From the NCBI GenBank assembly GCA_965207575.1, contig OZ242288.1, positions 2,941,467-3,005,466 of the forward strand: a DNA stretch of 64,000 nucleotides, read 5' to 3'. The notes under the pieces are model-generated. The model saw only the letters and a program-made list of their open reading frames with translations. It made no database searches and was not told the origin of the DNA. The DNA is from an uncultured Candidatus Binatia bacterium. Lineage in GTDB: Bacteria > Desulfobacterota > Binatia > Bin18. A program made the position numbers and the translations under genes. Positions 1 through 30,973 of the stretch are shown in pieces; positions within the stretch are counted from its first letter, which is position 1, and each line of letters opens with the position of its first letter.

Positions 1-45
1 TCAGCCGGAGATTTGAGCCACAAGAGGAAAATCCGCCCTTTTTGT

Positions 46-1329
46 TCAGGGGGATGCGACAGATACGGGAAGCAGCATGGTTCTCGCCCGCACGACCAGC
101 ATCAACGCGGCAGCGCACAGCAGACCGATACCAACGCCGCTAAACCCGAGTTGATAGCTGCCGGTCGTGTCATAGATAAAGCCCATCACAGTCGGGCCAA
201 CGAAGCCGCTCAAACAGATAACGGTCTGATAGAAACCGTAGATCACGCCGTGCGCTTTCATACCGAACATACGCCCGGTCACGAGGGCGGTCAGCGGGGT
301 GGTACCACCAAAGAAGAAGCCGAAGCAGGTCACAAAACCGACCACGGCAACCACGGGAGAAGCCCATAAGAGCAAGGCTATACCCACGCCACCCAGGGCA
401 TAACAGGTCGCCGCCAGTTGCAGCGGATCATAGCGATCACTCGCCCAGCCAAAACCCAGCCCGCTGAGCACGGACGCGCTCAGCAGCACACTCATCAGCA
501 GGGCCGCGTGCTGGGCGGAAAAGCCTTGATCCGTAAAATAGGGATACTGGTGAATCATCACGGAAAAGAGACAGCCATAGGCCAGAAAATAGATGCCGAT
601 GAGCGCCCAGAAACGGCCGGTCCGGAGCGTATCGCGGGCGGATATCCCCTCCCCTACGTCAACATCGGGCGGCGTGTCGTCCGTGGTCGGTCTCGTCTCG
701 CCGTCCGGCAGCAGACCCAGGTCAGCCGGCGTATCTCGCAACAGCCCAAACAACACCGGAAGCAGGATAAGCCACAGCAGCCCGCCCAGGACCAACAGGG
801 TGAGACGCCAGTCGACCCACTCGATACAAGACGAGGCAAAGGGTGTCATCAGCAGCCCGCCAACCGGAGCGCCGATCATGGCCGTACCCATGGCCCGACC
901 GCGCTTGCGCGCAAACCAGCGCGAAATAACGATATTGACCGGCACATGGGCCAGGGCCGTAAACCCAACCCCCACCCCGAGACGCAGCACATAGAGTTGC
1001 CACAGGGCCGTCATCTGAGACAGCAGCATCAGGCACAGGCCGACCAGTACGGCCGCCGGAATCATGACCGCCCGCGGCCCATACAGCCCTACCGCTCGCC
1101 CGACAAAGGGAGCGGTGAGAGCAATAGCCAACATAAAGGCTGAAATCCCACCGGATACCTGCGCCCGGGTCCAGCCGAACTCTGCGGTCAGCGGTTTGAG
1201 AAAGACGGGGAAAGACAGATTACCCACACCACCGGCCATCGACATGCTGACAAAGCATGTCACGACAATCCACCAGCCATAAAAAAACGCGGGCGCCCCC
1301 TGGCTCAATCCTCCGTCCCGGTCTGCCAT
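46..1329 (-). CDS. MFS transporter (oxalate/formate antiporter-like family)
   Basis: 427-aa ORF with 12 predicted hydrophobic helices and a central hydrophilic loop; MFS-like motifs. Confidence 0.7.
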   Translation of the reverse strand: MADRDGGLSQGAPAFFYGWWIVVTCFVSMSMAGGVGNLSFPVFLKPLTAEFGWTRAQVSGGISAFMLAIALTAPFVGRAVGLYGPRAVMIPAAVLVGLCLMLLSQMTALWQLYVLRLGVGVGFTALAHVPVNIVISRWFARKRGRAMGTAMIGAPVGGLLMTPFASSCIEWVDWRLTLLVLGGLLWLILLPVLFGLLRDTPADLGLLPDGETRPTTDDTPPDVDVGEGISARDTLRTGRFWALIGIYFLAYGCLFSVMIHQYPYFTDQGFSAQHAALLMSVLLSASVLSGLGFGWASDRYDPLQLAATCYALGGVGIALLLWASPVVAVVGFVTCFGFFFGGTTPLTALVTGRMFGMKAHGVIYGFYQTVICLSGFVGPTVMGFIYDTTGSYQLGFSGVGIGLLCAAALMLVVRARTMLLPVSVASP

Positions 1330-1404
1330 GCCGCTACGTATAGAGGCCCGGCCGCCTATCCGTCCAGGGCGGTCGTTTTTGACGGAGGTCGGAACGACGC
1401 CTCC

Positions 1405-2562
1405 TCAAATGGCGCGAATCTTGGGCAATACCTCCTGGGCAAAGAGTCGCAGGCTCTGCGTGGCGAGTGCATCCGGTAGGGAACCAAACTGAAACATCGC
1501 CAGGAGGGTTCCGCGTTTGCCCTCCTCGCGTTGGCGTTTGATTTGCGCGAGCACGCTTTCCGGTCCACCTAAAATGACGGTCCCATTCTCAATTCCCTCA
1601 TCGACGCTATAGCCCATGGCCTTGCCCGTGTCTTTGCTCGTGACGTTCTTCAGCCAGTCGCGCATGCCATTGACGCTCATATGTCCGGGGATAAGCGAGA
1701 CGGTGCCGATATCAAACGACGCCAGCGCGCGGAAGAAGTGGTATTCTAAGTGCGCTTCGGCCTCCTGGCGGGCCTTTTTATCGCTCTCGCCAACGTATAA
1801 CGCGCAGATCGAGGCAAACATGTCATCAAAATCCTCGGGGACGGTGATGCTTTGCTCTTGAGCCAGCCGATAATACGTCTCGTGCACCGAACGGGTGCGC
1901 TCAATACTGACCCACGGCGTAGCAATATAGGTGCGGTTCTTGACCGCAAAATCGAGCGAGTCCAGGCTGTTGGCCGCCATCCAGATTTTCGGATAGGGCT
2001 GCTGCAGGGGCTTGGGCCAGATATTGTAGTCCCGGACGCGGTAGAACTGGCCGTCAAAATCAAACCGCCCCTCACTCGAAAGCGCTTTCAGGACCAGGGA
2101 AAACCCTTCCCGAAACCGCGCCTGAGATTCCGCCGGGTTGACGTTGTAGGACAGGTATTCGGTCGGAAAGCCACGCAGCGCCCCCCAGATGAAACGCCCA
2201 TTGCTCAGGTGGTCGAGCATGGCGACCTCTTCCGCAATGGCCAGCGGGTGGTGTAACGGAATACACGTGCCGGTGACCGCCACTTGAAGATGTTGCGTGC
2301 GCTGCGAGACGGCTGCCGCCATGAGGTGGGTCGAGGGTACCATGGCACAAAATCCGCCGCCGCCATGATGCTCCTGACAGGTGAAGCCATCCAACCCAAG
2401 CTCATCACTCAGTGTGATCCGGTCCAGCTCTTGTTGCAGCAACGCGTTTCCCCGGACAGGATCAAAATACCGATTCGAGAGCGGATACGATCCGGGCGTA
2501 CCAACGGGAGCGTCGTCAGGCAGATGCGGCCAGCCAAACAGCACCATATTGAAGACTCTCAT
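1405..2562 (-). CDS. Luciferase-like (LLM) flavin-dependent oxidoreductase
   Basis: LLM-family sequence. Start moved to MRVFNM (ATG at 2562), which overlaps the upstream gene stop by ATGA (2559-2562). The ORF-track N-terminal extension is unlikely. Confidence 0.7.
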   Translation of the reverse strand: MRVFNMVLFGWPHLPDDAPVGTPGSYPLSNRYFDPVRGNALLQQELDRITLSDELGLDGFTCQEHHGGGGFCAMVPSTHLMAAAVSQRTQHLQVAVTGTCIPLHHPLAIAEEVAMLDHLSNGRFIWGALRGFPTEYLSYNVNPAESQARFREGFSLVLKALSSEGRFDFDGQFYRVRDYNIWPKPLQQPYPKIWMAANSLDSLDFAVKNRTYIATPWVSIERTRSVHETYYRLAQEQSITVPEDFDDMFASICALYVGESDKKARQEAEAHLEYHFFRALASFDIGTVSLIPGHMSVNGMRDWLKNVTSKDTGKAMGYSVDEGIENGTVILGGPESVLAQIKRQREEGKRGTLLAMFQFGSLPDALATQSLRLFAQEVLPKIRAI

Positions 2563-3365
2563 GCTCCCCCCTCTGGCGGAATGAAGGTGTGAATAGCCTG
2601 GATAACGGCCTCGCAATCCTCCACATACGGGAGATGTCCCGCCCCCGGAATCACCACGCTGCGAGCCTGTGGCAGCGACGCGGTCCACAGCGCGGCGTGC
2701 GCTGGCGCCAGGAGGGGGTCCTGCTCGCCCCAGACGACAAGCGTTGGGGTCGTCAGAAGATGCAAGTGATGGCGCAGGCTGCGACTGTGGAGGTAGGGGT
2801 CAAACACCAGGCGGATACTCGCGTTTCGGTTGTTGATGAATGCGTCGGTCCAGTCACTCAGCTCTGGAACGTACAGTGAGGCCTTCTCCAGAGCCGCATC
2901 AGGAAAAAGATACTGCGGCAGGCGGGCCGGGTCCGTATAGAAGAGATTGGGCACCTTGGTCCAGTCCTGCACCAAGCCGAGCGGGCTAATCAAAACCAAA
3001 TTGGCAATCCGCTCCGGTCGGAGCAGAGCGAGCTCGGCCCCGACCCATCCACCGAGACACGAGCCGACGACAATCGGCCGTTTGAGCGACAGGGCCTCAA
3101 AGAATTGCAGCAGCAGCACCGCTACGTCGTGCGGCGTCTTCGCCCACCCCGGCAACGTGGATTGCCCATAGCCCGGCAGGTCGGGAACACACACCTGAAA
3201 ACGTTCGGCTAAGCGTTGGTGGTAGTCCATCCAGCCCGGCTCGCCCCACAGCCAGTGGAGCCATACCAGCGGCGGACCCTGGCCAGCCCGACGGTAGCAA
3301 AATTGAAGAGCGTCCCGCGCCGCGCCATCTCCACGCAGTTCAAGCGTTTCTCGTTGCGGAGTCAT
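2559..3365 (-). CDS. alpha/beta-fold hydrolase
   Basis: 268 aa with a GxCxGG nucleophile-elbow variant (VGSCLGGW) and a C-terminal His; translationally coupled to the LLM gene. Confidence 0.7.
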   Translation of the reverse strand: MTPQRETLELRGDGAARDALQFCYRRAGQGPPLVWLHWLWGEPGWMDYHQRLAERFQVCVPDLPGYGQSTLPGWAKTPHDVAVLLLQFFEALSLKRPIVVGSCLGGWVGAELALLRPERIANLVLISPLGLVQDWTKVPNLFYTDPARLPQYLFPDAALEKASLYVPELSDWTDAFINNRNASIRLVFDPYLHSRSLRHHLHLLTTPTLVVWGEQDPLLAPAHAALWTASLPQARSVVIPGAGHLPYVEDCEAVIQAIHTFIPPEGGA

Positions 3366-3678
3366 ACTCGCAGATTTTCCTTTTTGCCATTAGGGTTAGC
3401 ATAAGCTCGGCGGTTCCTACAGCCTGGAACATCTGTTTTTGACTATACTCAATAATTTTTTGGTATAGCCGAAGCCCGACATATAGCTCTGACAAAAAGT
3501 GGGAGATGTATCATTTAGATGAATGAGTTCTTGCGAGGTGTGAGATCCGGGAGGACCGGGGGAGACTGTGGAGTTAAACGGCGAAGGGCTTATCGACCCA
3601 CGCCAGGCTCACGGACTCCTCCCAGGTGTGCTAGGAGGAGGAGCGAAATTCTCAGTGAATGTCTCAAGGAGGTGTTTC

Positions 3679-4545
3679 ATGCGGATAAAGCACGTCGTGT
3701 GTGGTCTGGTCGTGGTTGCTCTGATGGGCGGAGGCAGCTCTCAGGCGACGGCCGAGTTTTTCCCCTGGTGGGCGTTTGACAGTGTCATTGAGGAGGTTCA
3801 GGACCGGGGGACGCTGAGAGTCGGGCTCGGGCTGTTCCCGCCTGGGTCAGCCTGTAATGCCGACGGCGAGTTGGTCGGCTTCGAGATTGATGTGGCGACC
3901 AAAATAGCCGCAGACATGGAGGTTGAAATCGAATTTGTGCCGACGAACTGGAACTATATTATCCCGTCACTGATCGCGGAGGAGTTTGATATCATTAGTG
4001 GGATGACGATCCTGCCACACCGCAACCTCAAGGTCAATTTCACGTCCCCCTACAATGCGACCGGCATCTATCTGGTGGCGAATATGGAGGAAAGCGCAGA
4101 CCTGGAAACACTGGCAGATTTTAACCGGGCCGCTGTCACGATTGCGACCCGCCGCGGTGCCTCGTCCATCCCCGCGATCAGGAATGTATTTCCTCATGCC
4201 ACGTTACGGCTCTTCGACGCAGACACCGAGGTCCTCCAAGCGGTCGTCGCTGGTGAGGTTCATGCTGTGGCAGCGTTCGCGACGGCGCGGACCAGATGGG
4301 TTGAGGCTCACCCGGAGACGCTGCATGTGCCCTTCGAGGAGCCATTTGCCTCGGTCGTGTTAGCATGGGCCGTGCGCAAAGGGGACCTCGATACCCTCAA
4401 TTTCTTCAACAGTTGGATTACGGTCAACCAGGCGAACGGCTGGCTTGAGCAACGCCGCCAGTATTGGTTCGAGGGCCGCGAGTGGGAGGGTCGGGTCGCG
4501 ACCGATCCTGAAACCGTTGCCGCGTGCGATGAATCGTTTCAATAG
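3679..4545 (+). CDS. Periplasmic substrate-binding protein, family 3 (amino-acid ABC-type SBP), copy 1
   Basis: Signal peptide MRIKHVVCGLVVVAL; SBP_bac_3-like sequence. AAGGAGG ribosome-binding site 7 nt upstream. Start taken at the internal Met (3679) because the paralog starts there. Confidence 0.7.
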   Translation: MRIKHVVCGLVVVALMGGGSSQATAEFFPWWAFDSVIEEVQDRGTLRVGLGLFPPGSACNADGELVGFEIDVATKIAADMEVEIEFVPTNWNYIIPSLIAEEFDIISGMTILPHRNLKVNFTSPYNATGIYLVANMEESADLETLADFNRAAVTIATRRGASSIPAIRNVFPHATLRLFDADTEVLQAVVAGEVHAVAAFATARTRWVEAHPETLHVPFEEPFASVVLAWAVRKGDLDTLNFFNSWITVNQANGWLEQRRQYWFEGREWEGRVATDPETVAACDESFQ

Positions 4546-4612
4546 TGGGCTGCGGGTCAGGCCGCCCGGATAAGGGGCGAAATTCCAGGCGCATGTCTCA
4601 AGGAGGTGTTTC

Positions 4613-5482
4613 ATGCGGATAAAGCACGTCGTGTGTGGTCTGGTCGTGATTGCTCTGATTGGTGGTACTAGCTCGCGCGCGCCGGCCGAGTTTTTCCCGT
4701 GGTGGGCGTTTGACAGCGTCCTTGAGGAGGTCCAGGACCGGGGGACGCTGAGAGTCGGACTCGGCCTGTTCGAGCCCGAGTCGTTCTGCAATGCCAACGG
4801 CGAGTTGATCGGCTTCGAGATTGATGTGGCGACCAAACTGGCCGAGGACATGGGGGTGGAGATCGAATTTGCGCGGACGAACTGGAACTATATCATCTCG
4901 GAACTGCTCGCGGAGGAGTTTGATGTCATTATCAGCGGGATGCAAATCCTGCCGGACCGCAATCTCCGGGTCAATTTCACCTCCCCGTACAATGCGACCG
5001 GGACCTTCCTCGTGGCGAATAGTGCACAAACCACAGACCTGGCAACGCTGGCCGATTTCAACCGTGCCAGTGTCACGATTGCGGTCCGGCGGGGAGTAGC
5101 GTCCATCCCTGCGATTGAGACTGTGTTTCCTGAGGCCATGCTCCTGCTCTTTGACACCGACACCGAGGTCCTCCAAGCCGTCATCGCCGGTGACGCCCAT
5201 GCCGCGGCAGCGTTTGCGACGACGCGGACCACGTGGGTGGAAGCCCACCCGGAGACCCTGCATATGCCCTTCGAGGAGCCATTTGCCTCGGGCGTGGCGG
5301 GCATGGGTGTGCGCAAAGGGGACCTGGATACCTTAAATTTCTTCAACAGTTGGATTACGGTCAACCAGGCGAACGGCTGGCTCGAGCAGCGCCGCCAGTA
5401 TTGGTTCGAGGGCCGCGAGTGGGAGGGTCGGGTCGCGACCGATCCGGACACCGTTGCTGCGTGCGACGACTCATTTCAATAG
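4613..5482 (+). CDS. Periplasmic substrate-binding protein, family 3, copy 2 (tandem paralog)
   Basis: About 80% identical to copy 1 across its length, including the duplicated ribosome-binding site and leader (gtctcaaggaggtgtttcATG). Confidence 0.7.
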   Translation: MRIKHVVCGLVVIALIGGTSSRAPAEFFPWWAFDSVLEEVQDRGTLRVGLGLFEPESFCNANGELIGFEIDVATKLAEDMGVEIEFARTNWNYIISELLAEEFDVIISGMQILPDRNLRVNFTSPYNATGTFLVANSAQTTDLATLADFNRASVTIAVRRGVASIPAIETVFPEAMLLLFDTDTEVLQAVIAGDAHAAAAFATTRTTWVEAHPETLHMPFEEPFASGVAGMGVRKGDLDTLNFFNSWITVNQANGWLEQRRQYWFEGREWEGRVATDPDTVAACDDSFQ

Positions 5483-5515
5483 TGGGCTGCGGGTCAAGCC
5501 GCCCAGACCTCGCCA

Positions 5516-5666
5516 CTAGAGCAAATTACGATGCTGTGTAGCCGCCCGTCATTCCTGCGCAAGCAGGAATCCAGGCCCTCGGCCTCCCTGGCCGCTGGAT
5601 GCCGGATCAAGTCCGGCATGACGAGAGCGGACTGGTACGACTACAACGTATCGTAAACCGCTCTAG
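5516..5666 (+). repeat. MITE-like structured repeat, copy A
   Basis: Terminal inverted repeats CTAGAGCAAATTACGAT / ATCGTAAACCGCTCTAG. Internal hairpin modules CATTCCTGC-GCAA-GCAGGAATC and GCCGGA-TCAAG-TCCGGC. Same modules recur at about 43965, 45758, 48849 and 62085. Confidence 0.55.
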
Positions 5667-6151
5667 CCAACAAAGAGTGTGTAGGGTTTGCCGTTCAGAT
5701 GAATGAGTTCTTGCGGGGCCAGCAGGCATTTTTCCTGGGAGAGCACGCGGCTGGCGATCTCCCGATTGATGGGCGGCACCTGCTCCAATTGCTCAATCTG
5801 CTCCAGGGTCAAATACTCGGCGCGGTCAACCTCTTCCATATCTGGCTGCGGCTCACCGCGCAGCGGTTTCATCAGCAGGACGATGTACAGGCTGTTGCCA
5901 ATGTCGGGATCACACCGATTCCGCAGGCCAATGACGCCCTGCACCTCTCCGGTCACGCCGGCTTCCTCGCGGACCTCGCGGACGACGGCCCGCTCGATGG
6001 TTTCGTCCGGCTCGACAAAGCCGCCCGGAACCTGCCAGTTCCCCCTACCCCGCCGTGAGGCGCGGCGCACGAGCAGCAGACGGTTGTCGCGCACGACCGC
6101 GCCACCAACGCCAAGGTTGTAGCCACGGTTATACCGTTCGGGGATGGGCAT
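5663..6151 (-). CDS. NUDIX hydrolase
   Basis: NUDIX box GGFVEPDETIERAVVREVREEAGV (GX5EX7REVXEEXGU). Confidence 0.8.
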   Translation of the reverse strand: MPIPERYNRGYNLGVGGAVVRDNRLLLVRRASRRGRGNWQVPGGFVEPDETIERAVVREVREEAGVTGEVQGVIGLRNRCDPDIGNSLYIVLLMKPLRGEPQPDMEEVDRAEYLTLEQIEQLEQVPPINREIASRVLSQEKCLLAPQELIHLNGKPYTLFVG

Positions 6152-6188
6152 GGAAATGAAGCGGGAGACGCGGTGTCTCCCGATCGTG

Positions 6189-6974
6189 TTACGAAAGCAC
6201 CATGGGCAGCCCGAGGTACTCGTTATACATAAAGTCCCGATGTTCGATCAGGGCGGGGTCGAGCGCTTTTTCAATCGCCGGATTGGGGAACTCGAAGGCC
6301 GCGCGCAACACCTCCATGATATTGCACTGCTCGGGCGGCAGCGGTTTCATCAGGGCGCAAAACGTAGCCCAATAGAAGTCCAGGGCCGTGACGTGTTCGC
6401 CCATGAGGAAGCGGTTGCCCTTTGCCTGCTCGGCTTTGAGGCGGGCGGACAGGAGGGTCAGCACGTCGGTCACCCGTTTGGTCGCCTCCGGGCCGATGCC
6501 GGGCCGGTAGCCGTATTTCGCCCCAAGGTAGTGGCCCATCTCGGCCGGAATCGGGTAGTTGACATTCGGGTCTATGGCGGCATCACACATCATGAGACGA
6601 GCTGACCAGCCCAGGCCCATTTCGCCACAGATTTCATACGAGAGACCGAACATCAGCGCGCGTTGCTCCGGGTCAGCCGGAATAAGACGGGGCTCGGGCT
6701 GGAGGCGTTCGAGCAAGAGCAGGATCTCCGCCCAGCCGGACCGGGGCGCTTCGTCTTCATACATGGCGGACGGCGCGCTATCCTCACCCGTCCACTCCAC
6801 CAGGCCCTTATTGGCCTCGGGGTTACCCGGCATATAGAGCGTAGCGGTAAAGGGAATATTTTTGGTCTTGAGCATACCCTTGATCGCTTCTCCCCACGGG
6901 CTCGGCGCATTGGCCACAAACGTCAGGCGCAGACCCGAGGCCTGCTTGGCTTCTTCCAGACTGACAAACTGCAT
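6189..6974 (-). CDS. Glutathione S-transferase-like protein
   Basis: N-terminal thioredoxin-like segment plus C-terminal helical GST-like domain. Start probably at MQFVS rather than the ORF-track Met. Confidence 0.5.
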   Translation of the reverse strand: MQFVSLEEAKQASGLRLTFVANAPSPWGEAIKGMLKTKNIPFTATLYMPGNPEANKGLVEWTGEDSAPSAMYEDEAPRSGWAEILLLLERLQPEPRLIPADPEQRALMFGLSYEICGEMGLGWSARLMMCDAAIDPNVNYPIPAEMGHYLGAKYGYRPGIGPEATKRVTDVLTLLSARLKAEQAKGNRFLMGEHVTALDFYWATFCALMKPLPPEQCNIMEVLRAAFEFPNPAIEKALDPALIEHRDFMYNEYLGLPMVLS

Positions 6975-7084
6975 ACCGTCCTCCTTCGCTTCGGTCTGAT
7001 GACGCGGCATTCTAGCGGAATAGTGCGGCGGGCGCGATACGCGGAGACTTGATCTCCATCTCTTCCGCCGTTAGCTTCGAGCCC

Positions 7085-7618
7085 ATGCCAACCCCGGCCG
7101 TTACGCGCAACCCGTTTTCCTGGTTTTTGCTCCTCGGCCTGCTCCTGAGCGGATTTCTGATCTGGCTGATTTACTATAAGCCGGCGGCCACGACAGAGGG
7201 AGAGTGGGTGACCTACCTCCCGGCGGCCAACGCCGGTTTTAACGCCCTGTGCGCCTGCTGTTTGATCGGCGGGTTTGTCAACATCAAGCGCGGCAACCGG
7301 GAGCGGCATATACGCTGCATGCTGGCCGCGCTCGTGTTCTCAGTCCTCTTTCTGGTGAGTTATATCGTCTATCACCATTTTCACGGCGATACCCCCTTTC
7401 CCGGCCAGGGACCGATTCGGCTACTGTATTTTTTCATCCTGATCAGCCACATCGTGCTGTCCATTGTCGCCCTGCCCCTGGTCTTCACCACGCTCTACCA
7501 CGCGGCCCGCCAACAGTTTGAGGCCCACAAAAAGATCGCGCGCTACACCTTCCCGGTCTGGCTCTACGTCTCGGTCACCGGCGTGCTCGTCTTCTTTTTT
7601 CTCAGAGCCTATACGTGA
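7085..7618 (+). CDS. DUF420-type small membrane protein
   Basis: Four predicted TM helices and a YHHFHG motif. The length and topology match DUF420 proteins. Confidence 0.45.
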   Translation: MPTPAVTRNPFSWFLLLGLLLSGFLIWLIYYKPAATTEGEWVTYLPAANAGFNALCACCLIGGFVNIKRGNRERHIRCMLAALVFSVLFLVSYIVYHHFHGDTPFPGQGPIRLLYFFILISHIVLSIVALPLVFTTLYHAARQQFEAHKKIARYTFPVWLYVSVTGVLVFFFLRAYT

Positions 7619-7792
7619 ATACGGGCAACCCAGCCCGGCCTTCGGCCATCCCTCCAAGAAGGGGATCAGGAAGGATGTATGACGACGCAGCCTCAAGATG
7701 GCCGACGAGTACGCCACACCACCAACCAGAGCTTGCGGTCATCTTCCGAATAATGATATCGCTTTCTCAATATACTGATATCGGATGAGGCT

Positions 7793-8041
7793 ATGAGCAA
7801 AGTGTTTGTCAGAACAGTAATCAGCCTGGATGACGAACAGAAGGCGTGGCTGGACCGGCAGGCTGCGTTGCGCCGCGTGTCCATGGCCTCGCTGATTCGC
7901 CAGGCGGTCAGCGAATTTCGGATGCGGGAACAGCGCGGCTCGGCGACCTCGTTTCAAGAGGTGCTCAAGCAGACGGCGGGCATCTGGCAGGGCGGGGACG
8001 GACTCGAGTACCAGGAGCGTATTCGCAAGGAATGGCCCTGA
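7793..8041 (+). CDS. vapB: Type II antitoxin, RHH/CopG-like (VapB)
   Basis: 82 aa; N-terminal ribbon-helix-helix-like segment; 4-bp gap before the PIN toxin gene. Confidence 0.6.
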   Translation: MSKVFVRTVISLDDEQKAWLDRQAALRRVSMASLIRQAVSEFRMREQRGSATSFQEVLKQTAGIWQGGDGLEYQERIRKEWP

Positions 8042-8044
8042 GGG

Positions 8045-8449
8045 ATGGCCAGATATCTGCTCGACTCGGTCATCGTCATCGACCACTTTAACGGCGTTGA
8101 GGCGGCGACGGAGTTTCTTGCCGCCCACGGGCGCGATTGCGTGATTTCCGTCATTACCCGTGCGGAGACGCTGGCTGGATTCCTTGCGGCATCGGAGTCC
8201 TTGGCTCGCGAGCTATTGGACACGTTTACGGCGTTACCCGTAACCGTCGAAGTCGCTGATGCCGCCGCACAGTTGAGGCGTACCCAGCGCTGGAAACTGC
8301 CGGATGCGATTCAGGCGGCCATCGCCATTCAGGAAGGTCTGACATTGGTCACGCGAAATACTCGGGACTTCAAGGCTGGCGGCCCGGTCGCGGTGGAAAC
8401 TCCGTATCAAATACCCAATCCGCCCAAAAGGAAGAATAACGCCACATGA
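8045..8449 (+). CDS. vapC: PIN-domain toxin VapC
   Basis: MARYLLDSVIVID... PIN N-terminus with conserved acidic residues; immediately downstream of the antitoxin. Confidence 0.8.
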   Translation: MARYLLDSVIVIDHFNGVEAATEFLAAHGRDCVISVITRAETLAGFLAASESLARELLDTFTALPVTVEVADAAAQLRRTQRWKLPDAIQAAIAIQEGLTLVTRNTRDFKAGGPVAVETPYQIPNPPKRKNNAT

Positions 8450-8643
8450 ACACCGCCCCCGTTTTCTGACTGGAGCAAGTCGTGCAGAGAGCGCACTTGG
8501 AGGATTTCGTAGGCACGTGTGGGCATCCCCCTTACGTGCACTATTCCTTTGGAATGCTGATTACAGCGGAAGTCTCTCTTGGGAGGAGTGCCGCGTAGCG
8601 GCGAGGTGGTTTGTCAGGTCCGATCGGATTGTAACACAGGCGG

Positions 8644-10911
8644 CTATGCTTGCAGCGTAATCGGCTCAAGCGCATCACCCCGCGCCTGTACGGTGCCGAT
8701 AATAACCGCGTCCTGATAGCCCAGAGCCTGAAGCTCCCGGAGACACGCCTGGGCCTGTTCGGCCGGGACGCTGGCCAGGAGTCCGCCGGCGGTCTGCGGG
8801 TCGAACAGCAGAGCGTAGTACGGATGCCGGGCCGCCCGCTCCCCCTCGCGAATGGCCCGCCGCAGCCGAATATTCTGCGGTTGCAGGGACGAAAAAATGC
8901 CTTGCAGAATGACCTCCAGCGCACCGGGCAGGATCGGCAGCCGTTCCATATCGAGAACCGCGTCAACGGCCGAGGCGCGGACCATTTCGACCAGATGGCC
9001 CAGCAGGCCGAATCCGGTCACGTCGGTCATGGCGGTCGCGCCGTGCTGACGCAGGCAGTCCGCTCCGGCTCGATTTGACTGCCGCATGGAGGCGAGCGCG
9101 GCTTCGATCCAGCGGCCTTTGGCCTTGTGTCGCATGTCTGCGGCAAACAGCGCACCGGTTCCCAGCGCCTTGGTCAGAATCAGGGCTTGTCCCGGCTGCA
9201 TGCCGCTTTTTTTCAGCACGGATTCCTGGCTGGCCAGACCGTTGATGGCGAATCCAAGCGCCAGTTCGCTGCCCTCGCTGGTATGCCCGCCAACCAGGGC
9301 GGTGTGTTCCCGGTTGAGCACCTCCAAGGCCCCGGCCATGAGCTGGGTGAGCTGGTCCTGGACCTTGTGTTCCAGGCCGTACGGGACGGTGACCATGGCC
9401 AGAGCGGTCTGCGGCTCCGCGCCCATGGCAAAGATATCACCCAGGGCATGGGTGGCCGCGATCTGGCCGAAGACAAACGGGTCCTCGATAAAGGCCCGGA
9501 AAAAATCAACGGTTTGTACCAGCGCTTTTCCGGGCGGGACGGTGACTACTGCGGCATCGTCCGGCGCGTGCAGACCGACAATGACATCGGAGCGGTCAAC
9601 CGGCTCAAGGCGTGCCAGGGCCTGGTTGAGGACCGTACTACCGATCTTGGAACCGCAGCCGCCGCACCGCATGGCAAAGGCGGAAACCTCTTTGAGGATC
9701 TGGGCATCGGCCAGTCCCGGCTCTACCTGGGCCGGCTCGTCGTCGGGCATATCCGGCAACTCGTTGTATTTGCGGATAAAGCGCCGGTCGATCCAGTCTT
9801 TCCACTTCCAGACCCACCTCCCCTCACACGCCCAGCGTGAACGCGAGGCCACCGCATATTGGTCTCCGGTAGAGATCAGGCTCAGAAACTGCTTTTGCGG
9901 CGCAAAGGCTTTGACGGGCTGGCCTCGCAGGAAACGGCGCAGATTCTTCGCCAAGGGCGGGCCCTGGCGGACGGCGAACACACCGGATTTTGGGCGGGGA
10001 TGGTTGACGACTGCGGCAATATCCCCGGCGGCAAACACCTCGGGATGGGAAACCGACTGGAGCGTGTCCTGCACGGCGATAAAACCCTGCTCGTCTGTGG
10101 CCAGGCCGGCCTCTCCCGGCCAACCGGCAGCGCCGGCCGTGGTGACCCACAGCATCTCGTCCAGAGCGAGTTGGGTGTCATCGGCAAAACGCACGCACCC
10201 TTCGGCAGCGCCGGTGACGAGACAATCCGTTCGGACCTCGACGCTGCGCTGCTTGAGAATACGCATAAACGCGGCTCGGACACGTGGGTTGTGGGTCGGC
10301 AGAATCTCTGGTGTCCCGCTGATGAGGTAGAAAACGAGATGGTCGGCCGACCGGTTTTGCCGGGCGAGCAGACGTTCGAGGCAGTATTGGACGGCCAGCA
10401 GGAGTTCCACGCTCCCGGCTCCACCGCCGATAACGCCGATTGTCGTGCGGGCGGTCCGGGCCAGACAGCGCTCGCGGAGCTGTTCCCAATGCCGCCAAAA
10501 ACTATCTATGGGCTTGACGGCCACACCGGTGTGCCCGGCCCCGGGGATATGCCCAACAGCCGGTGTGGCCCCGATATTAATGGACAAGGCATCATAGGCC
10601 ACGGGTGGCCGGGTACGACACACCACCTGCTTGTTGGTCAGGTCCAGGCCGATCACTTCATCGTGAAAAAACTGCGCTCCGGCGAACCGGGACAGCGGCC
10701 CAAGATCGATATGGGCCTGATCAAAGCCATAATGCCCGGCGATATAGCCGGGTAACATGCCGGAATACGGCGCGTGCGTATCGCGGCAAATCAGCGTCAC
10801 GCGGACACCCGGCAACGGCTTCATGCCAAAGCGTTTCAGCACGGTGACATGACTGTGGCCACCGCCGATCAGGACCAGATCTTTGACTACCGGAGTGGAT
10901 GTCGGCCTCAC
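8644..10911 (-). CDS. selD: Fusion protein: FAD/NAD(P)-dependent pyridine-nucleotide-disulfide oxidoreductase (NDH-2/SQR-like) N-domain + selenophosphate synthetase SelD (Cys-type) C-domain
   Basis: N-terminus has the Rossmann motif VLIGGGHSH and a second GxGxxG ([12 protein letters not shown]). The C-terminal 350 aa carry the SelD signature [13 protein letters not shown] (compare E. coli GCGCKISPKVL) and the PurM/AIR-synthase-related fold. Confidence 0.8.
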
Positions 10912-10994
10912 AAAAGCGATCCTTCAGTACCGTAGGAACCCACCCCGTCGCCACGCGGCACCCTTCCTAAGAGGAGGGAAAGCACGTCCCGCCG

Positions 10995-13040
10995 CTATTC
11001 ATGCTGCAAAAGGAGATTCCCGCTTACGTCATACTGGACTGTCCAGCCGGGCGGTACAACCACCGTGGTATCTGGTTCTTCTACAATGAGCGGGCCGCTC
11101 CGCGCCTGTTCAAGAGCGGTGCGCTGATAGACCGCGGCCTGGCATTCGCCCACCTGGGGACCGAAATACGCCGTGCGGGAGGCTGGAGACGGAGGGGTGT
11201 TCCCGGTTCCAGTCAGCTCGGTCAGGCGTAGGTGGCCGGAGGAGGCTAGGGCTCGCAGCCGAACGCTGACAAGCTCAATCGTATCGGCTCGATCATAGCC
11301 AAACGCCTGGCGGTGCGCTTCGGTGAAGAGCTGGGCCAGACGGTCCTGCATGTCCGCGACTGATACGTTGGGAAAAGGCAGACTCAGCTCGGCTACCTGA
11401 TAGCCATACTTGAGATCGACCTGGCGCTCAAAACGAATCTGCTCCGCGGCAATCCCTTCGTCGGCCAACTCGACCCGCGCCTGGGTCTCAAGCTCCTGGT
11501 AGTGACGCAGCACGGCCTGCGGATCAAGCTGGTCCAGAGCCACGGCCACGCTACGGATATAGTCGTGGCGATAATCCGCCAAGAGGAGTCCAAACGCGCT
11601 GAACAAGCCTGGGGAGAGCGGAATCTGAACCTGCGTCATACTCAGGCTGTCCGCCAGGGCCGCGGCGTGCATCGGCCCGGCTCCGCCAAATGCGATCAGG
11701 GTAAAGTTACGCGGGTCTCGCCCACGTTCGGTCGAGACGGCCCGCAGGGCGCGCATCATGGTCGCGTTTGCCACCTGGGTGATACCATAGGCCGCGGCCA
11801 GAACTTCCACATTGAGCGGTCGGGCGATTTTTTGCTCAATCGCAGTCCAGGCGGCCCGGCGGTCGATGGCCAGAGTTGCACCAGCGATGGCGTCGGGGTT
11901 CATATAGCCCAGCACGACATTGGCGTCGGTCACGGTCGGCTCGGTTCCGCCCCGGCCATAACAGGCCGGCCCGGGGTCCGCGCTGGCGCTCTGGGGGCCG
12001 ACCCGTAAGGCACCCCCGTCATCTATCCAGGCAATACTACCGCCGCCGGCGCCCACTTCCACGATATCGAGCGAAGGGACGCGGAGCGCATGTCCGCCGC
12101 CGCCGAACAAACGCGTGGTCATGGTTGCACCGCCCCCGATCTCCCCGCCCGGCTTCTCAAGCGGCACGCCGTTTTCGATCAAACAGGCTTTGGCGGTCGT
12201 CCCTCCCATGTCAAACGAGAGCACCTGATCCTGCTGCGTCTCCTGGGCGAAACGCGCCGCAGCCAGCACGCCGGCGGCCGGACCCGACTCGATCATATAC
12301 GCGGGCCGGCGCCGGGCGGCCTGGGCGCTCATAATGCCGCCGTTGGACTGCATAATCAGAACGCGCTCGCTATAGGCCGAGAGGTGCCGTTCCAGTCGAT
12401 CAAGATAGCGGTCAACGACCGGAATCAGGGAGGCGTTAATGACGGTTGTACTGGTGCGTTCGTACTCGCGAATCTCGGGGTGGATATCGTACGACAGACA
12501 CACCACCGTATCCGGAGCCGCTTCAGCGATAAGACGTCCCAACTGCTGTTCGTGCGTGGGATTGAGATAGGAGTTCACCAGGCAGACGGCTATCGTTTCC
12601 ACTCCGGCGGCCAGAAGCTGATCAATCACCGCTCGGGCCTGTATCGGATCGAGCGCACGCTCAATACGGCCGTTGCCCAGAATGCGCTCCTGGACTTCCA
12701 AACGCAGGGAACGGGGCACGAGAGGCGGCAGGCGGTCCCAGTCCGCGTCATAGATATTGGGCCGCCGCTGCCCGCGCATTTCAAGTTCGTCCCGAAATCC
12801 CTGGGTGGTAATCAGTCCGGTCCGCGCGGTGGTCTCTTCGATGACGGCGTTTGAGGCAATGGTCGTGCCGTGGACGAAGCCCTCGACCTGGGCCCGCGCA
12901 TCGACCTCATTGACGCAGCGGACGATATCTTCGCCCACCTGATCGAGCAGCGAGAGGACCTTCGTGGTGAACAGGCGTCCGTCGTCGCCAACCACAATAA
13001 CGTCGGTGAAGGTTCCGCCAATATCAAAGCCTATACGCAT
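10995..13040 (-). CDS. hyuA: Hydantoinase/oxoprolinase A subunit (HyuA family), paralog 1
   Basis: MRIGFDIGGTFTDVIVV... N-terminus; 681 aa Hydantoinase_A family. Confidence 0.85.
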   Translation of the reverse strand: MRIGFDIGGTFTDVIVVGDDGRLFTTKVLSLLDQVGEDIVRCVNEVDARAQVEGFVHGTTIASNAVIEETTARTGLITTQGFRDELEMRGQRRPNIYDADWDRLPPLVPRSLRLEVQERILGNGRIERALDPIQARAVIDQLLAAGVETIAVCLVNSYLNPTHEQQLGRLIAEAAPDTVVCLSYDIHPEIREYERTSTTVINASLIPVVDRYLDRLERHLSAYSERVLIMQSNGGIMSAQAARRRPAYMIESGPAAGVLAAARFAQETQQDQVLSFDMGGTTAKACLIENGVPLEKPGGEIGGGATMTTRLFGGGGHALRVPSLDIVEVGAGGGSIAWIDDGGALRVGPQSASADPGPACYGRGGTEPTVTDANVVLGYMNPDAIAGATLAIDRRAAWTAIEQKIARPLNVEVLAAAYGITQVANATMMRALRAVSTERGRDPRNFTLIAFGGAGPMHAAALADSLSMTQVQIPLSPGLFSAFGLLLADYRHDYIRSVAVALDQLDPQAVLRHYQELETQARVELADEGIAAEQIRFERQVDLKYGYQVAELSLPFPNVSVADMQDRLAQLFTEAHRQAFGYDRADTIELVSVRLRALASSGHLRLTELTGTGNTPPSPASRTAYFGPQVGECQAAVYQRTALEQARSGPLIVEEPDTTVVVPPGWTVQYDVSGNLLLQHE

Positions 13041-13124
13041 GTCTTCATCCGTTCAGATCAGAAGATCGCAGTGGCCGGGCGAGGGCCACCAAAGAAGAGT
13101 GAGTCTGAAGCATCCGGTCCGTGA

Positions 13125-14867
13125 CTAGTCTGCTGCCGCAACCGGTTGCAAGCGGGTGGCTCGCAGAGCCTCGGTTTCCGGCGTATTCACCGCAGCCGCG
13201 TCCGTATCAATCACCACCCCATACTGATCTCGCGCCTGGGCGACGGACAGCTTTTCGTCCTGCACGTCGGCCAGCACCTGGGCGGGGTCGCGCTCCAGGG
13301 GATTGCCGTGTCCGCCCGAGCCGGACACGATGTGGTGAATGCGATCGCCCGGCTTGACGTCCATATGCAGATGGGCTTTGCGCGGCAGTTCCCGACCCTC
13401 GGCTTCTGGATTCAGAATGTTTTTGGACAGCGAGCCGGGCGCGCCACCGGCCAGCCCCCCGGAGGCCCGAATGAGACGGTTGGTGCGAACCATGACTTTT
13501 CCGGGGCTCAGGAAACGCCACTGTTTATAGATGGACACCGAGCCCCGGTGCTTGCCGGCGCCGCCCGTATCCGGCACATAGCCAAACCCGTCAACGACCA
13601 GCGGGAATTCACGTTCGAGCAGTTCCGCCGGAATGGTTCCGTACGACCCGAAGGCCATGGGCGCCACGCCATCAATCCCGTCCTTGCGCGGCCGTCCGCC
13701 CCAGCCGCCAAAGAAAATATCCATGACCGCAAACGGTGTCCCGTCTTCCTTCTCACCAGTAAAGTGCAACACGTCCCCACCCTCTCCGGGGATGGGCACC
13801 CGGTCGGGCAACGCCTGGGCCAGGGCACGAAACAGCATGTCAAAAACCCGAAAGAATAAGGGCGCGCGGCCACCGACCGCGGCCGGAAAGCGCGGGTTTA
13901 CCAGGGTACCGAGTGGCGCAACGATCTGTATGGGCCGAATAAAGCCGACGTTGGTTAACACCTCAGGGCTGACAATGCTCTTGACCGCGCCATAGACCGT
14001 CGCTTCCGTCATGCTCAGCGGCAGGTTGATCGCCCCGCGCGCCTGTGGACCGGTGCCGGTGAAATCAACGCTCAGGGTTTCGCCCTGTGCGCGCAGGGTC
14101 ACCTTGATCGGCAGGGCTACACCGTCGGAGCCAAAACCATCGTCCTCAAAGGCGTCCTCATACACATACTCGCCCGGAGGAATCTCCTTGATGGCCGCCC
14201 GAGTGGCCTTTTCCGCATAGGCAATCAAATAGTCACAGCACGAGCTGAACGTATCCAGGCCGTATTTTTCGAGCAGACGTTTCAGTTCCTGCTCGCCACG
14301 CCAGCAGCCCGCGATTTTTGCCTCCACGTCTCCGAGCCATTCGTCGGATACCCGGACGTTGGCCAGAATCGTCTCCAGGAGGGCTGCGTTGCGCTCCCCG
14401 GCCTTGTACAGTTTGATCGGCGGCAGGCGGAGCCCTTCTTCGAAGGTTTCCGTACACTGGCTGCTGAACCCGCCCGGAAAGCGCCCGCCAATATCGGTGT
14501 GGTGCGAATAGGCCAAGGTAAAGGCGACCCGCCGCCCCTGCCAGAACGTGGGCGCAATGATCATTACGTCCGGCATATGGGTGACACCGGCATACGGATC
14601 GTTCACCACAATGATATCGCCGGGCGCGAAGTCCTCCCCGTATTTTTTGAGGATGTGCGGCATCACCGCAATAAAGAAGGCCAGTTGAAACGGAGCCGCA
14701 TAGCCCTGGCCGATTAACCGGCCCCGGCCGTCGCAGATAGCGGTGGCAAAATCTCCGGTCTTGACCATGGCCGAGCGGCCGGTTTTCCACACCGCAATCG
14801 CCATTTCTTCGGTAATGGCGGCCAACTCGTTTTTCACAACCTCAACCAGAATAGGATCAAATGCCAT
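13125..14867 (-). CDS. hyuB: Hydantoinase/oxoprolinase B subunit (HyuB family), paralog 1
   Basis: MAFDPILVEVVKNEL... ; 580 aa Hydantoinase_B family. Confidence 0.85.
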   Translation of the reverse strand: MAFDPILVEVVKNELAAITEEMAIAVWKTGRSAMVKTGDFATAICDGRGRLIGQGYAAPFQLAFFIAVMPHILKKYGEDFAPGDIIVVNDPYAGVTHMPDVMIIAPTFWQGRRVAFTLAYSHHTDIGGRFPGGFSSQCTETFEEGLRLPPIKLYKAGERNAALLETILANVRVSDEWLGDVEAKIAGCWRGEQELKRLLEKYGLDTFSSCCDYLIAYAEKATRAAIKEIPPGEYVYEDAFEDDGFGSDGVALPIKVTLRAQGETLSVDFTGTGPQARGAINLPLSMTEATVYGAVKSIVSPEVLTNVGFIRPIQIVAPLGTLVNPRFPAAVGGRAPLFFRVFDMLFRALAQALPDRVPIPGEGGDVLHFTGEKEDGTPFAVMDIFFGGWGGRPRKDGIDGVAPMAFGSYGTIPAELLEREFPLVVDGFGYVPDTGGAGKHRGSVSIYKQWRFLSPGKVMVRTNRLIRASGGLAGGAPGSLSKNILNPEAEGRELPRKAHLHMDVKPGDRIHHIVSGSGGHGNPLERDPAQVLADVQDEKLSVAQARDQYGVVIDTDAAAVNTPETEALRATRLQPVAAAD

Positions 14868-14915
14868 AGCTCTCCTCCCGGCCCGCGTGTCTGACGCGGG
14901 CCGTCCATTCTCCCG

Positions 14916-16661
14916 TCAGGTCCTCAGCTCGGACCGCAGTGTTGCCCGGAGTTGCGCCGTCCGCTGCCAGTCAACCTGCTCCGTGCTCTGGTCAATGGCG
15001 ACCCCGTATTCCCGCTCGGCGTACGCGGCTGAGATTTTCTCGTCCAACACATCGTCCAGGACGAGCCGGGGGTCACGCGAGAGCGGGTCGCCATAACCGC
15101 CCGCACCCGGTTGGACATGCAGCAGGGTTTCTCCGGATCGTACTGCGGTATCGATGAGCATTTCGTGTGGGAGTGGGGTTTCTACCTCGCCGGAGCGCAG
15201 CCTGGCATCAAACGGGGTGCCGTCTTTTCCGCCGGCCAGCCCATACGGAACGGATTTGACTCGACAGGTTCGGAGCATTACCCGGCCGTCGCCCAGAAAG
15301 CGCCATTTCCGGTACACGGACAGGGCCCCACGGTATTGACCCGGACCGCCGGTATCCGGCAAAAAGCCAAAGCCGTCCAGCATGACCGGACATTCGCGCT
15401 CGATCATTTCCGCTGGAATGCTGCGCATGGCGCCGCCGGCAGCCATGGGGGTGACGCCTTCCACCCCGTCGCTATCGGGCCGCGCGCCCCAGCCCGAGGT
15501 GTAAATATCCAGCAGCATGGACGGCACGCCCGCCTCGACCTGGGGCGTATACACCAGCAAATTCGCCCCACCCTCGCCCGCGGCGTAGACCTTGTCGGGA
15601 ATGGCCTGGGCCAGGGCGGCAAAGATCATGTCGATAATCCGCCACATCAGCATCCCGCGCGCGCCGACCGCGCCGGGGAATTGCGGATTGACCACGCAGC
15701 CCTCGGGAGCAGTCACCTGAATGGGGGCCATCAGCCCCGAGTTTGCCGGCGCATCCGTCTCAAGAATGGACCGAAAGGCCACGTACACACAGGCACGGGT
15801 GAGATTAAAGGGAACGTTGATCGCGCTGCGGACCTGGGGGCCGGTGCCGTCAAAGTCCACCCGGACGGACTCGCCGGCAACGGTCACCGTGAGACGCAGG
15901 TTGACCCCCTCCCCGCCCAAGCCGTCATCTTCAAACAGATCCGTACACGCATATGAGCCGTCCGGGATGGCGGCAATACAGGACCGCATGGCCCGCTCGC
16001 TGTACTGGCGCAGTTGTTCGTTACAGGCTGCAAATTGTTCCAGCCCGTGGCGGTCGAGCAGCTCCCGGACTCCCTGGGCACCACGCCGGCAGGCCGCGGC
16101 CTGGGCGTCCAGGTCGCCGCGTACATCCTCAGGTGCCCGGACGTTGGCGGCAACCATATCGACCAGATCGTGATTCAGCTCACCCTTGCTGAAGAGCTTG
16201 ACTCCCGGAATACACACCCCTTCTTCGTAGACTTCGGCACAGGCTATGCCCATGCCACCGGGGAAGCGGCCGCCAATATCGGTGTGGTGTTCTACGATGG
16301 CCGCAAAGCCGACCAGTTGTTCCTGCCAGAAAATCGGCATGATCAGAACGATGTCCGGGAAGTGAGACACCCCGCCGTAGGGGTCGTTTGAGACAATCAC
16401 ATCGCCGGGGTGGAGGTCGTCGCCAAATTTCTTCAGCACCCACGGCATGACCCCCATGATGTAGCCCAGGTGGACGCCGATGGTCAGGCCCTGGGCGATC
16501 AACCGGCCCTGGGCATCAACCAGCGCGGTGGAAAAATCAGAGCCTTCCTTGGCCCCCAGCGAGCGCGCCGTCCGCTTCATGGTAATGCCCATTTCTTCGG
16601 CGACTGCGGTCAGCTCGTTTTTCATGACTTCGATAAGAATGGGGTCAAATGCAGTTGGCAT
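14916..16661 (-). CDS. hyuB: Hydantoinase/oxoprolinase B subunit (HyuB family), paralog 2
   Basis: MPTAFDPILIEVMKNEL... ; 581 aa. Confidence 0.85.
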   Translation of the reverse strand: MPTAFDPILIEVMKNELTAVAEEMGITMKRTARSLGAKEGSDFSTALVDAQGRLIAQGLTIGVHLGYIMGVMPWVLKKFGDDLHPGDVIVSNDPYGGVSHFPDIVLIMPIFWQEQLVGFAAIVEHHTDIGGRFPGGMGIACAEVYEEGVCIPGVKLFSKGELNHDLVDMVAANVRAPEDVRGDLDAQAAACRRGAQGVRELLDRHGLEQFAACNEQLRQYSERAMRSCIAAIPDGSYACTDLFEDDGLGGEGVNLRLTVTVAGESVRVDFDGTGPQVRSAINVPFNLTRACVYVAFRSILETDAPANSGLMAPIQVTAPEGCVVNPQFPGAVGARGMLMWRIIDMIFAALAQAIPDKVYAAGEGGANLLVYTPQVEAGVPSMLLDIYTSGWGARPDSDGVEGVTPMAAGGAMRSIPAEMIERECPVMLDGFGFLPDTGGPGQYRGALSVYRKWRFLGDGRVMLRTCRVKSVPYGLAGGKDGTPFDARLRSGEVETPLPHEMLIDTAVRSGETLLHVQPGAGGYGDPLSRDPRLVLDDVLDEKISAAYAEREYGVAIDQSTEQVDWQRTAQLRATLRSELRT

Positions 16662-16685
16662 GAACCTTCTTCCTTCACTTGCCTC

Positions 16686-16916
16686 TTATGCGGCTGGAAG
16701 TTCGCGTACGTGCAAAATTTCTCGCTCTCGCATAAGGCGAACGTCGGATGGAGTCAGCGTTAGTAGTGCTATCGTCTTCCCTTCCGCTGTCACAAACTCA
16801 ACCTCAAGCCCTTGACCATCCTGGTAGCAATGCACCACAACGCCGATATCGCCTTCCTTGAGCCCATGATTTTCAACATCATGAGTAAGAACGACCGTAT
16901 CAAGCTCTTGGAACAT
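16686..16916 (-). CDS. DUF4926-family small protein
   Basis: 76 aa; ELDxVxLTxDxxxHxLKxGDIGxVV...YEVEF pattern typical of DUF4926. Confidence 0.55.
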   Translation of the reverse strand: MFQELDTVVLTHDVENHGLKEGDIGVVVHCYQDGQGLEVEFVTAEGKTIALLTLTPSDVRLMREREILHVRELPAA

Positions 16917-16938
16917 AGATTCCTTCCTTCTCTCTTAT

Positions 16939-17271
16939 CTATAACGGGTAGGCAGTGACAAAGCGAGGATTATTCCGTTGTCCTTCAACAATCCAAACAG
17001 TACGAATACGGACTTTCCTCTTTGTCTTTGTTTCCAGTGCCCCTTCAATGACGTATTTTATTCCATGAGTTGATCGCGAGACACTTGTCACCTCGTTAGT
17101 ACGGGCAAAGGTTAAGAGTTGCTGCTTGAGGTCTTCCTCTCCAGCTACACTAAAACCAATCGCCTGAAAGAACTTAGACTTTGCTTTGCCAACCGCATGC
17201 GTAGGAGAGAGTAGGTATCTTGATAATTTCCCTTGGGGAATGTAGGCGTTGCGTCGATTGGGTAATTTCAC
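16939..17271 (-). CDS. DUF6883-family protein
   Basis: 110 aa; MKLPN... N-terminus and ...IRTVWxVxxGxxxPRFVTAYPL C-terminus as in DUF6883. Start overlaps the hyuA2 stop (ATGA). Confidence 0.5.
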   Translation of the reverse strand: MKLPNRRNAYIPQGKLSRYLLSPTHAVGKAKSKFFQAIGFSVAGEEDLKQQLLTFARTNEVTSVSRSTHGIKYVIEGALETKTKRKVRIRTVWIVEGQRNNPRFVTAYPL

Positions 17272-30790: not shown

Positions 30791-30973
30791 AGGCACGGGG
30801 ATGCCGAGTTGCTTGCAAATCCGCGCAGCCGTGAATTCGAGAATCTCACGATGACGCGGAACCGAAGTACGGCGATTGGTGGCCGGATTCTCCCAGATGG
30901 AATGTTCTCCCCCCTCCCGCACGAATCGGCATCCGTGTTGACTCAAGTGTCTCAGCAGATCGCGCCGTTTCAT
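30785..30973 (-). CDS. hicA: HicA-family toxin (mRNA interferase)
   Basis: 62 aa; MKRRDLLRHLSQHGCRFVREGGEHSIWENP... matches the HicA/YcfA pattern. Confidence 0.7.
   Translation of the reverse strand: MKRRDLLRHLSQHGCRFVREGGEHSIWENPATNRRTSVPRHREILEFTAARICKQLGIPVPS

Follow-up and report, generated by a model that had tools for sequence, protein, structure and literature searches.

Fusions of an NADH dehydrogenase-like flavoprotein to selenophosphate synthetase (Ndh-SelD) were described by Zhang et al. (2006/2008), and the NADH oxidoreductase was proposed to reduce a selenium compound for SelD (PMC2432076). In the Global Ocean Sampling data, ∼40% of the SelDs of the Cys type are Ndh-SelD proteins, all of which have a CxxC motif (PMC2398784). 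Mariotti et al. (2015) described it as “by far the most common” among SelD fusions and predicted that it still makes selenophosphate; selenoproteins and the selenocysteine (Sec) machinery were present in the fusion-bearing genomes that they examined (PMC4561486). SelD chemistry also supplies the sen pathway, for which it was established experimentally that selenoneine is made through a selenosugar (Kayrouz et al. 2022, bioRxiv 10.1101/2022.04.13.486033). Here, we analyze an Ndh-SelD gene (selD in the following) on a 64,000-nucleotide (nt) stretch of DNA, the window, from an uncultured Candidatus Binatia bacterium (GenBank assembly GCA_965207575.1, contig OZ242288.1, positions 2,941,467 to 3,005,466).

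In the window, selD directly follows the hydantoinase/oxoprolinase-type gene hyuA1. An earlier reading of the DNA from its sequence alone (the sequence-only reading) had noted the fusion and taken its position for a speculative hint at a new use of selenium. Our analysis leads to a different view. The gene very probably encodes a known member of the Ndh-SelD family, and its place behind hyuA1 reflects synteny within Binatia and gives no evidence of a new selenium pathway. In the literature searched, we found no biochemical study of any fused Ndh-SelD, and a search for selenium use in Binatia returned nothing relevant.

The fusion protein and its SelD domain

The coordinates and both domains of the flavoprotein–SelD fusion given by the sequence-only reading are borne out by open reading frame (ORF) calling and by Pfam and NCBIfam searches (Table 1). 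The protein has the modal length of its family and comprises the Pfam domains Pyr_redox_2 (residues 10–317), AIRS (residues 451–558), and AIRS_C (residues 572–745). Its N-terminal domain matches the NCBIfam model TIGR03169 “Nterm_to_SelD” over the full model length (residues 11–382, 483.2 bits, cut-off 310), and its C-terminal domain matches the SelD equivalog model TIGR00476 (residues 414–719, 307.8 bits, cut-off 125). Pyr_redox_2 and TIGR00476 were the profiles that had been anticipated for the two halves, and both match, the latter above its cut-off. The models of the paralogous enzymes ThiL (94.7 bits), HypE (33.6 bits), and PurM (16 bits) all score far under their own cut-offs, so that the assignment of the C-terminal domain as a genuine Cys-type SelD stands.

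Homologs of the fusion protein number more than 8000, and the same architecture is found in 120 of 120 among the matches listed; at least 546 reference species carry the fusion. Domain order, the length of 755 amino acids, the CxxC motif, and the matches to TIGR03169 and TIGR00476 are all as in the described Ndh-SelD proteins, and members from Proteobacteria, Planctomycetota, and Acidobacteriota share 60–66% sequence identity with the protein from the window. The protein itself is no different from other Ndh-SelD proteins, whereas its host lineage and its gene neighbors differ (hyuAB upstream and DUF420, GST-like, and NUDIX genes downstream). The fusion is not unusual, but belongs to a curated family and represents the commonest SelD fusion.

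Sequence searches of the PDB with the fusion protein return E. coli SelD and type II NADH dehydrogenase (NDH-2). The SelD domain aligns residue by residue with E. coli SelD (PDB code 3u0o; E 8e-50) and shares 35% identity with it across the domain. Cys419 pairs with the catalytic Cys17 of the E. coli enzyme and Lys422 with Lys20, whereas D452, D469, D492, and D630 pair with the Asp metal/ATP ligands D51, D68, D91, and D227. The active-site signature motif comprises 15 residues (residues 414–428), and a flexible N-terminal glycine-rich loop is common to both proteins. In contrast to E. coli SelD, the fusion protein possesses an additional cysteine three residues upstream of the catalytic one (CxxC), a serine in place of Cys19, a histidine in place of Asn87, and a 400-amino acid flavoprotein at the N terminus. 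Among 198 family members, Cys416 is conserved in 198 and Cys419 in 197, and His488 and Cys723 are essentially invariant. Conserved residues without an assigned role occur throughout the family: Cys98, His488, Cys619, and Cys723 (window positions 8743–10620). By its catalytic and ligand residues, the C-terminal domain represents a selenophosphate synthetase of the Cys type, with predicted activity.

The C-terminal domain might instead be a SelD-like paralog that makes no selenophosphate, as described by the model TIGR04369 (“fusion_not_SelD”). The alignment to this model spans the entire fusion protein and reaches 478.8 bits, but this value is well under the cut-off of 700, whereas the SelD model scores 2.5 times over its own. 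Moreover, the catalytic Cys, the Lys, and all Asp ligands of SelD are present. We thus rejected this assignment as extremely improbable.

The flavoprotein domain and its putative role

The N-terminal domain assumes an NDH-2-like fold with two dinucleotide-binding motifs, GGGHSH (residues 16–21) and GGGAGS (residues 162–167), both of which are conserved among the 198 family sequences. We built an AlphaFold2 model of the fusion protein from an alignment of 50 sequences (pLDDT 84, pTM 0.84). Confidence is low at the linker and the CxxC loop (residues 392–422), from which we read that both are flexible in the modeled protein. In Foldseek searches with the model, the C-terminal domain has the SelD fold, and the N-terminal domain is best matched by type II NADH dehydrogenases (TM 0.86–0.89, root mean square deviation ∼2.5 Å), whereas sulfide:quinone reductases (SQRs) match less well (TM 0.73–0.79). 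Among SQR models, the only match to the domain is SQR_III_seleno, the type III selenoprotein subtype, which reaches 34 bits (cut-off 525). Of the flavoprotein kinds named in the sequence-only reading, NDH-2 thus holds for the fold, whereas SQR does not.

Alignment to B. subtilis YjlD and C. thermarum NDH-2 (PDB code 4nwz) shows that the likeness to NDH-2 comprises the fold of the whole domain and both dinucleotide-binding motifs, at ∼21–23% sequence identity. Two features set the fusion apart. Cys98, kept in 193 of the 198 family members, has no counterpart in NDH-2, and the polypeptide runs on into SelD where NDH-2 ends in a membrane anchor.

The SelD domain would convert selenide and ATP to selenophosphate. 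The FAD- and NAD(P)H-binding domain most likely reduces oxidized or protein- or thiol-bound selenium with NAD(P)H, as was proposed previously, and the resulting selenide may be passed from the flavoprotein domain to the flexible CxxC loop of SelD, again in line with the earlier proposal. The idea that the redox domain supplies reduced selenium, which the sequence-only reading had put forward, is the hypothesis already published (PMC2432076); both the fusion and the redox-supply idea are in the literature.

Conservation of the gene neighborhood

We compared 83 loci (80 from reference genomes and three metagenome contigs) with up to 10 kb on each side of the fusion gene. ORFs were called and clustered, and the loci, labeled Lxxx, were probed with the genes of the window, the window protein serving as the identity reference. 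The closest reference loci are from metagenome-assembled genomes (MAGs) of Candidatus Binatia, with 90–94% identity. Orthologs of HyuA and HyuB lie upstream of the fusion only in Binatia-like loci (83 loci plus L084). Both hyuAB pairs precede selD in the window and in L001, L004, L005, L006, L035, and L084 (87–94% SelD identity). Only one pair is found in L002 (76% SelD identity, 356-nt gap) and in L011 (62% SelD identity, 274-nt gap).

In a Binatia clade with 73% identity (L003, L007, L085, and L086), the block of the methyltransferase gene, hyuA2, hyuB2, hyuB1, and hyuA1 is replaced by a helicase/Fic/Eco57I island. The amidohydrolase, glyoxalase, and RidA genes upstream, selD, and the DUF420, GST-like, and other genes downstream are retained in this clade. 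Therefore, selD persists without hyuAB. On its other side, selD is followed by a convergent DUF420 gene and by genes for a GST-like protein, a NUDIX protein, an alpha/beta hydrolase, and a luciferase-like monooxygenase. In conservation, these genes equal or surpass hyuAB, as plain vertical synteny would predict.

Outside of Binatia-like genomes, none of 74 loci shows an orthologous hyuAB–selD adjacency. L041 is the sole locus among these 74 with Hyu-like genes, which encode paralogs of 31–36% identity and are separated from the fusion by other genes and a distance of 5 kb or more; the same locus also has canonical senB and senA. In a neighbor-joining tree, Binatia group with L011 and one Acidobacteriota locus in a clade beside Entotheonella, Vicinamibacterales, and Planctomycetota, all without adjacent sen genes. 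The titles of two records are at odds with their loci, and binning or labeling errors are probable: L011, a MAG titled “Enterobacteriaceae,” shows synteny of the Binatia type and branches as the sister of the Binatia clade, and L044, titled “Bathyarchaeota,” carries a bacterial-type sen cluster.

From the adjacency, the sequence-only reading had raised, as a speculation, a coupling of HyuAB to selenium. Accordingly, selD would be the functional last gene of a hyuAB operon, and selenophosphate would feed a HyuAB-linked reaction, yielding a new selenium-containing small molecule or serving a selenium-dependent step in the metabolism of cyclic amides. Orthologous hyuB1–hyuA1 genes (68–83% identical) indeed stand right before selD in three Binatia-like sublineages that span 62–94% SelD identity, the spacer in the window is devoid of terminator, promoter match, and stable structure (see below), and the region abounds in genes for the catabolism of hydantoins and amides, among them three hyuAB pairs and genes for a hydantoin racemase, a carbamoylase, and amidohydrolases. 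However, the adjacency is confined to Binatia-like genomes. It is missing from 72 of 74 other loci, and of the two outliers, one is itself Binatia-like and the other is the senB/senA locus L041 with its distant paralogs. The 73% clade lost the whole hyu block but kept selD. The spacer is variable in length and harbors a strong palindrome in two relatives, and the genes on the far side of selD are no less conserved. We thus consider an operon function of this kind very unlikely. Very probably, the place of the fusion gene behind hyuA1 is synteny inherited within Candidatus Binatia.

A more specific version is less probable still. Here, hyuB1, hyuA1, and selD would form a functional module of Binatia, in which an ATP-dependent hydantoinase/lactamase opens a selenium-bearing cyclic amide and the Ndh domain reduces the released selenium, which is then captured again as selenophosphate. 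This version has its sole basis in the lineage-restricted adjacency and the hydantoin-catabolic flavor of the region. An example of a substrate, equally improbable, could be 2-selenohydantoin from the catabolism of selenoneine, by analogy to the thiohydantoin intermediate of ergothioneine degradation. No homolog of ergothionase or thiourocanate hydratase was seen among the ORFs scanned.

The hyuA1–selD spacer

In the window, a promoter and terminator scan of the 83-nt gap between hyuA1 and selD found neither a terminator nor a sigma-70 match, and the spacer is unstructured (folding z = +1.48). In relatives, its length ranges from ∼50 to 356 nt, and from ∼50 to 150 nt among six close Binatia loci. 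Only the block proximal to the ribosome-binding site is common to these six loci, and the Shine-Dalgarno-like GAAGGA of selD sits inside it. Judging from this arrangement, cotranscription of hyuA1 and selD is possible in this genome, though not a conserved trait, and selD may be transcribed by read-through from the hyu genes.

Several relatives carry a palindromic element in the spacer. It is intact in L001 (positions 9878–9910; −98 kcal/mol, z −7.8) and L005 (positions 9878–9917; −83 kcal/mol, z −5.7), and L002 has a related copy (positions 9773–9810). The spacer of the window retains one half of the palindrome; the other half-copy lies downstream of selD, so that a 37-nt inverted repeat brackets the gene. 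Apart from this downstream arm, the element is confined to hyuA1–selD spacers, with no copy in the rest of the window or elsewhere in the 83 loci. The palindromic element of the spacer is decaying. We also considered that the inverted repeat delimits a mobile selD cassette and rejected it, as both arms stand together upstream of selD in L001, L002, and L005, and L004, L006, and L035 lack the inverted repeat.

Selenium pathway genes near the fusion

The commonest neighbor of the fusion outside Binatia is a ∼320-amino acid glycosyltransferase, whose convergent gene overlaps the 3′ end of selD in 39 of the 74 loci. This protein is SenB (TIGR04348, 401 bits, cut-off 300). SenA (NF041186, 475 bits, cut-off 420) is encoded near the fusion in 27 of the 74 loci and EgtD in 11, and the putative binding protein of a selenate ABC transporter (TIGR04553) is found in 21, along with its PhnC/PhnE-like partners. 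Overall, sen genes occur in 44 of the 74 loci, and either a sen or a transporter gene in 52; among the 29 fully flanked loci, 18 have a sen gene. The nearest relatives outside Binatia (66 and 63% identity) are located in canonical sen clusters, each composed of an ABC transporter, the selD fusion, senB, and senA. In L088 (positions 1–19000) and L089, such a cluster has a phage-type integrase and several transposases at its flanks, suggesting that mobile islands can carry the sen cluster.

The family is thus linked to a known selenium-containing small molecule, selenoneine, through chemistry unrelated to HyuAB. The hunch of the sequence-only reading that a selenium small molecule is involved holds insofar as the family is tied to selenoneine through senA and senB, but not by way of HyuAB, and the sen genes are not in the window. 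There, tblastn searches with SenA, SenB, EgtD, the selenate-binding protein, and PhnC/PhnE-like proteins gave just a trivial flavoprotein match within the fusion. Likewise, in the 13 Binatia-like loci, no gene for SenA, SenB, EgtD, or the transporter lies less than 10 kb from selD. In agreement with the earlier statement that selA, selB, ybbB, and yqeB are missing from the window, NCBIfam and Pfam scans of its ORFs detected no selA, selB, selU, yqeB/C, yedF, or senABC. ARAGORN found no tRNA in the window, and hence no tRNA-Sec, and an Rfam scan of the whole window gave no match. In loci without adjacent sen genes, no other selenium gene recurs: among 94 neighbor ORFs of the 12 best-flanked loci of this kind, no NCBIfam family occurs more than twice (best 25 of 173 families, beyond which a single selU or selA match might lie).

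The fusion protein might nevertheless act as SenC in this host, for selenoneine or for a related product derived from a selenosugar, with senA and senB elsewhere in the host genome, which would be compatible with its membership in the Ndh-SelD family. Like SenC of the senABC cluster, it would supply selenophosphate by SelD chemistry. In most sampled lineages, the fused form is the SelD of the sen cluster, including the closest relatives outside Binatia, and the pathway itself is experimentally established. On the other hand, the window and the 10-kb flanks of all Binatia-like loci differ from the senABC cluster by the absence of senA and senB, and the selenate-binding protein and EgtD are missing there as well; the loci from Entotheonella, Vicinamibacterales, Planctomycetota, and Acidobacteriota similarly have no adjacent sen genes. 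Furthermore, a use in Sec synthesis is equally likely, given the selenoproteins and Sec machinery in the genomes of Mariotti et al. (PMC4561486). A role as SenC is a tentative possibility.

Several points weigh against our assignment of the gene to Ndh-SelD with mere synteny to hyuA1. The order hyuB1–hyuA1–selD is kept down to the 62% SelD identity of L011, and the short, terminator-free gap in the window and its closest relatives would allow a link at the operon level. The invariant residues His488 (at the position of E. coli Asn87), Cys98, and Cys723 have no explanation. In contrast to the fused protein of the window, the assayed SenC of V. paradoxus appears to be a single-domain protein, judging from residue numbering and the modeling template.

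Other features of the window

The gene context described by the sequence-only reading, with the 83-bp gap, two hyuAB pairs, RidA, a methyltransferase, an amidohydrolase (called an aminoacylase there), and two CoA-transferases, is found as described. Codirectional with selD are hyuA1, hyuB1, hyuB2, hyuA2, and the genes for RidA (positions 19414–19815), the methyltransferase, a glyoxalase-fold protein, the amidohydrolase, and two family-III CoA-transferases; a TetR regulator is also encoded near the selD/hyu block. The positions of the principal features are compiled in Table 1.

Table 1. Positions of selD, its domains, and adjacent features in the window
Feature	Position	Strand	Description
Ndh-SelD fusion gene	8644..10911	-	755-amino acid ORF, GTG start, three-domain Pfam architecture
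NDH-2-like two-Rossmann flavoprotein domain (residues 11-382)	9766..10881	-	TIGR03169 (483 bits), Foldseek, residues aligned with YjlD and C. thermarum NDH-2
SelD (selenide, water dikinase) domain (residues 414-745)	8677..9672	-	TIGR00476 and match to E. coli SelD
CxxC active-site codons (Cys416-Gly-Gly-Cys419)	9655..9666	-	Sequence, family conservation, 3u0o alignment
Shine-Dalgarno-like GAAGGA	10920..10925	-	8 nt 5′ of the GTG start of the fusion
hyuA1-selD spacer (83 nt)	10912..10994	-	Gap between hyuA1 stop and selD start
Inverted repeat, upstream arm (37 nt)	10937..10973		Half of palindromic element, 81% complementary to downstream arm
Inverted repeat, downstream arm	8576..8612		32 nt past the selD stop
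hyuA1 (HyuA/oxoprolinase-A family)	10995..13040	-	Upstream neighbor; caprolactamase-alpha model 536 bits, under equivalog cut-off of 1000
vapBC-type toxin-antitoxin pair	7793..8449	+	PIN domain; between selD and its ancestral convergent neighbor DUF420

The junction between selD and DUF420 is a hot spot for insertions. It is occupied by vapBC in the window, by a type I restriction system and vapBC in L084 (positions 12524–19105), by sulfotransferase genes in L085, and by other genes in L005 and L006; DUF420 directly abuts selD in L004, L035, and L003. Next to DUF420, a conserved protein of 260–273 amino acids (window positions 6189–7010, minus strand) matches no family over threshold and shows a subthreshold GST_C_2 match (E 1e-3). 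This GST-like protein adjoins DUF420 in every Binatia locus, but not in L011, and is 78–97% identical across the clade. We considered the 273-residue protein of the window as a diverged SenB and rejected this, as it has no similarity to the SenB cluster and just subthreshold GST_C matches.

Between hyuA2 and hyuB2, a small DUF6883 ORF (positions 16939–17271, minus strand) overlaps the end of hyuA2. The same spot harbors a DUF4926 gene in L001 and is empty in L005, L006, and L035, and thus looks like a variable insertion site for small genes. Farther away, positions 26913–38402 contain the third hyuAB pair, which is divergent and adjoins a TetR regulator, along with a carbamoylase that resembles ErtE but scores below the cut-off, two Amidohydro_3 proteins, a hydantoin racemase, and a PuuE-like deacetylase. 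From its gene content, this region is predicted to be a large island for the catabolism of hydantoins and cyclic amides.

At positions 41008–42968 (minus strand), the ORF of an IS5-family transposase and the 3′ end of a gene for an NCS2/xanthine-permease-like protein overlap; the permease covers only model positions 1–341 of 407 and was probably truncated by the IS5 insertion. Two adjacent, very large subtilase-type proteins of 825 and 1035 amino acids with weak mycosin-like matches are encoded at positions 46182–52105 (minus strand). Among the other ORFs of the window, NCBIfam and Pfam identify several amidohydrolases/amidases, an Nramp protein, and an HAE3/MMPL transporter.

Implications for the Ndh-SelD family

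The hyuAB adjacency fails the comparison across genomes, and selD is an ordinary ortholog from a family that is both curated and widespread. Besides the characterized single-domain SelD, the fused SelD is the SelD of many selenoneine clusters. The proposal of 2008 that the fused flavoprotein is a selenium reductase that feeds SelD is still testable. In Binatia, as in several more non-proteobacterial phyla, the fusion occurs with no sen genes next to it, which makes the selenium trait of these groups a worthwhile subject for genome-wide analysis.

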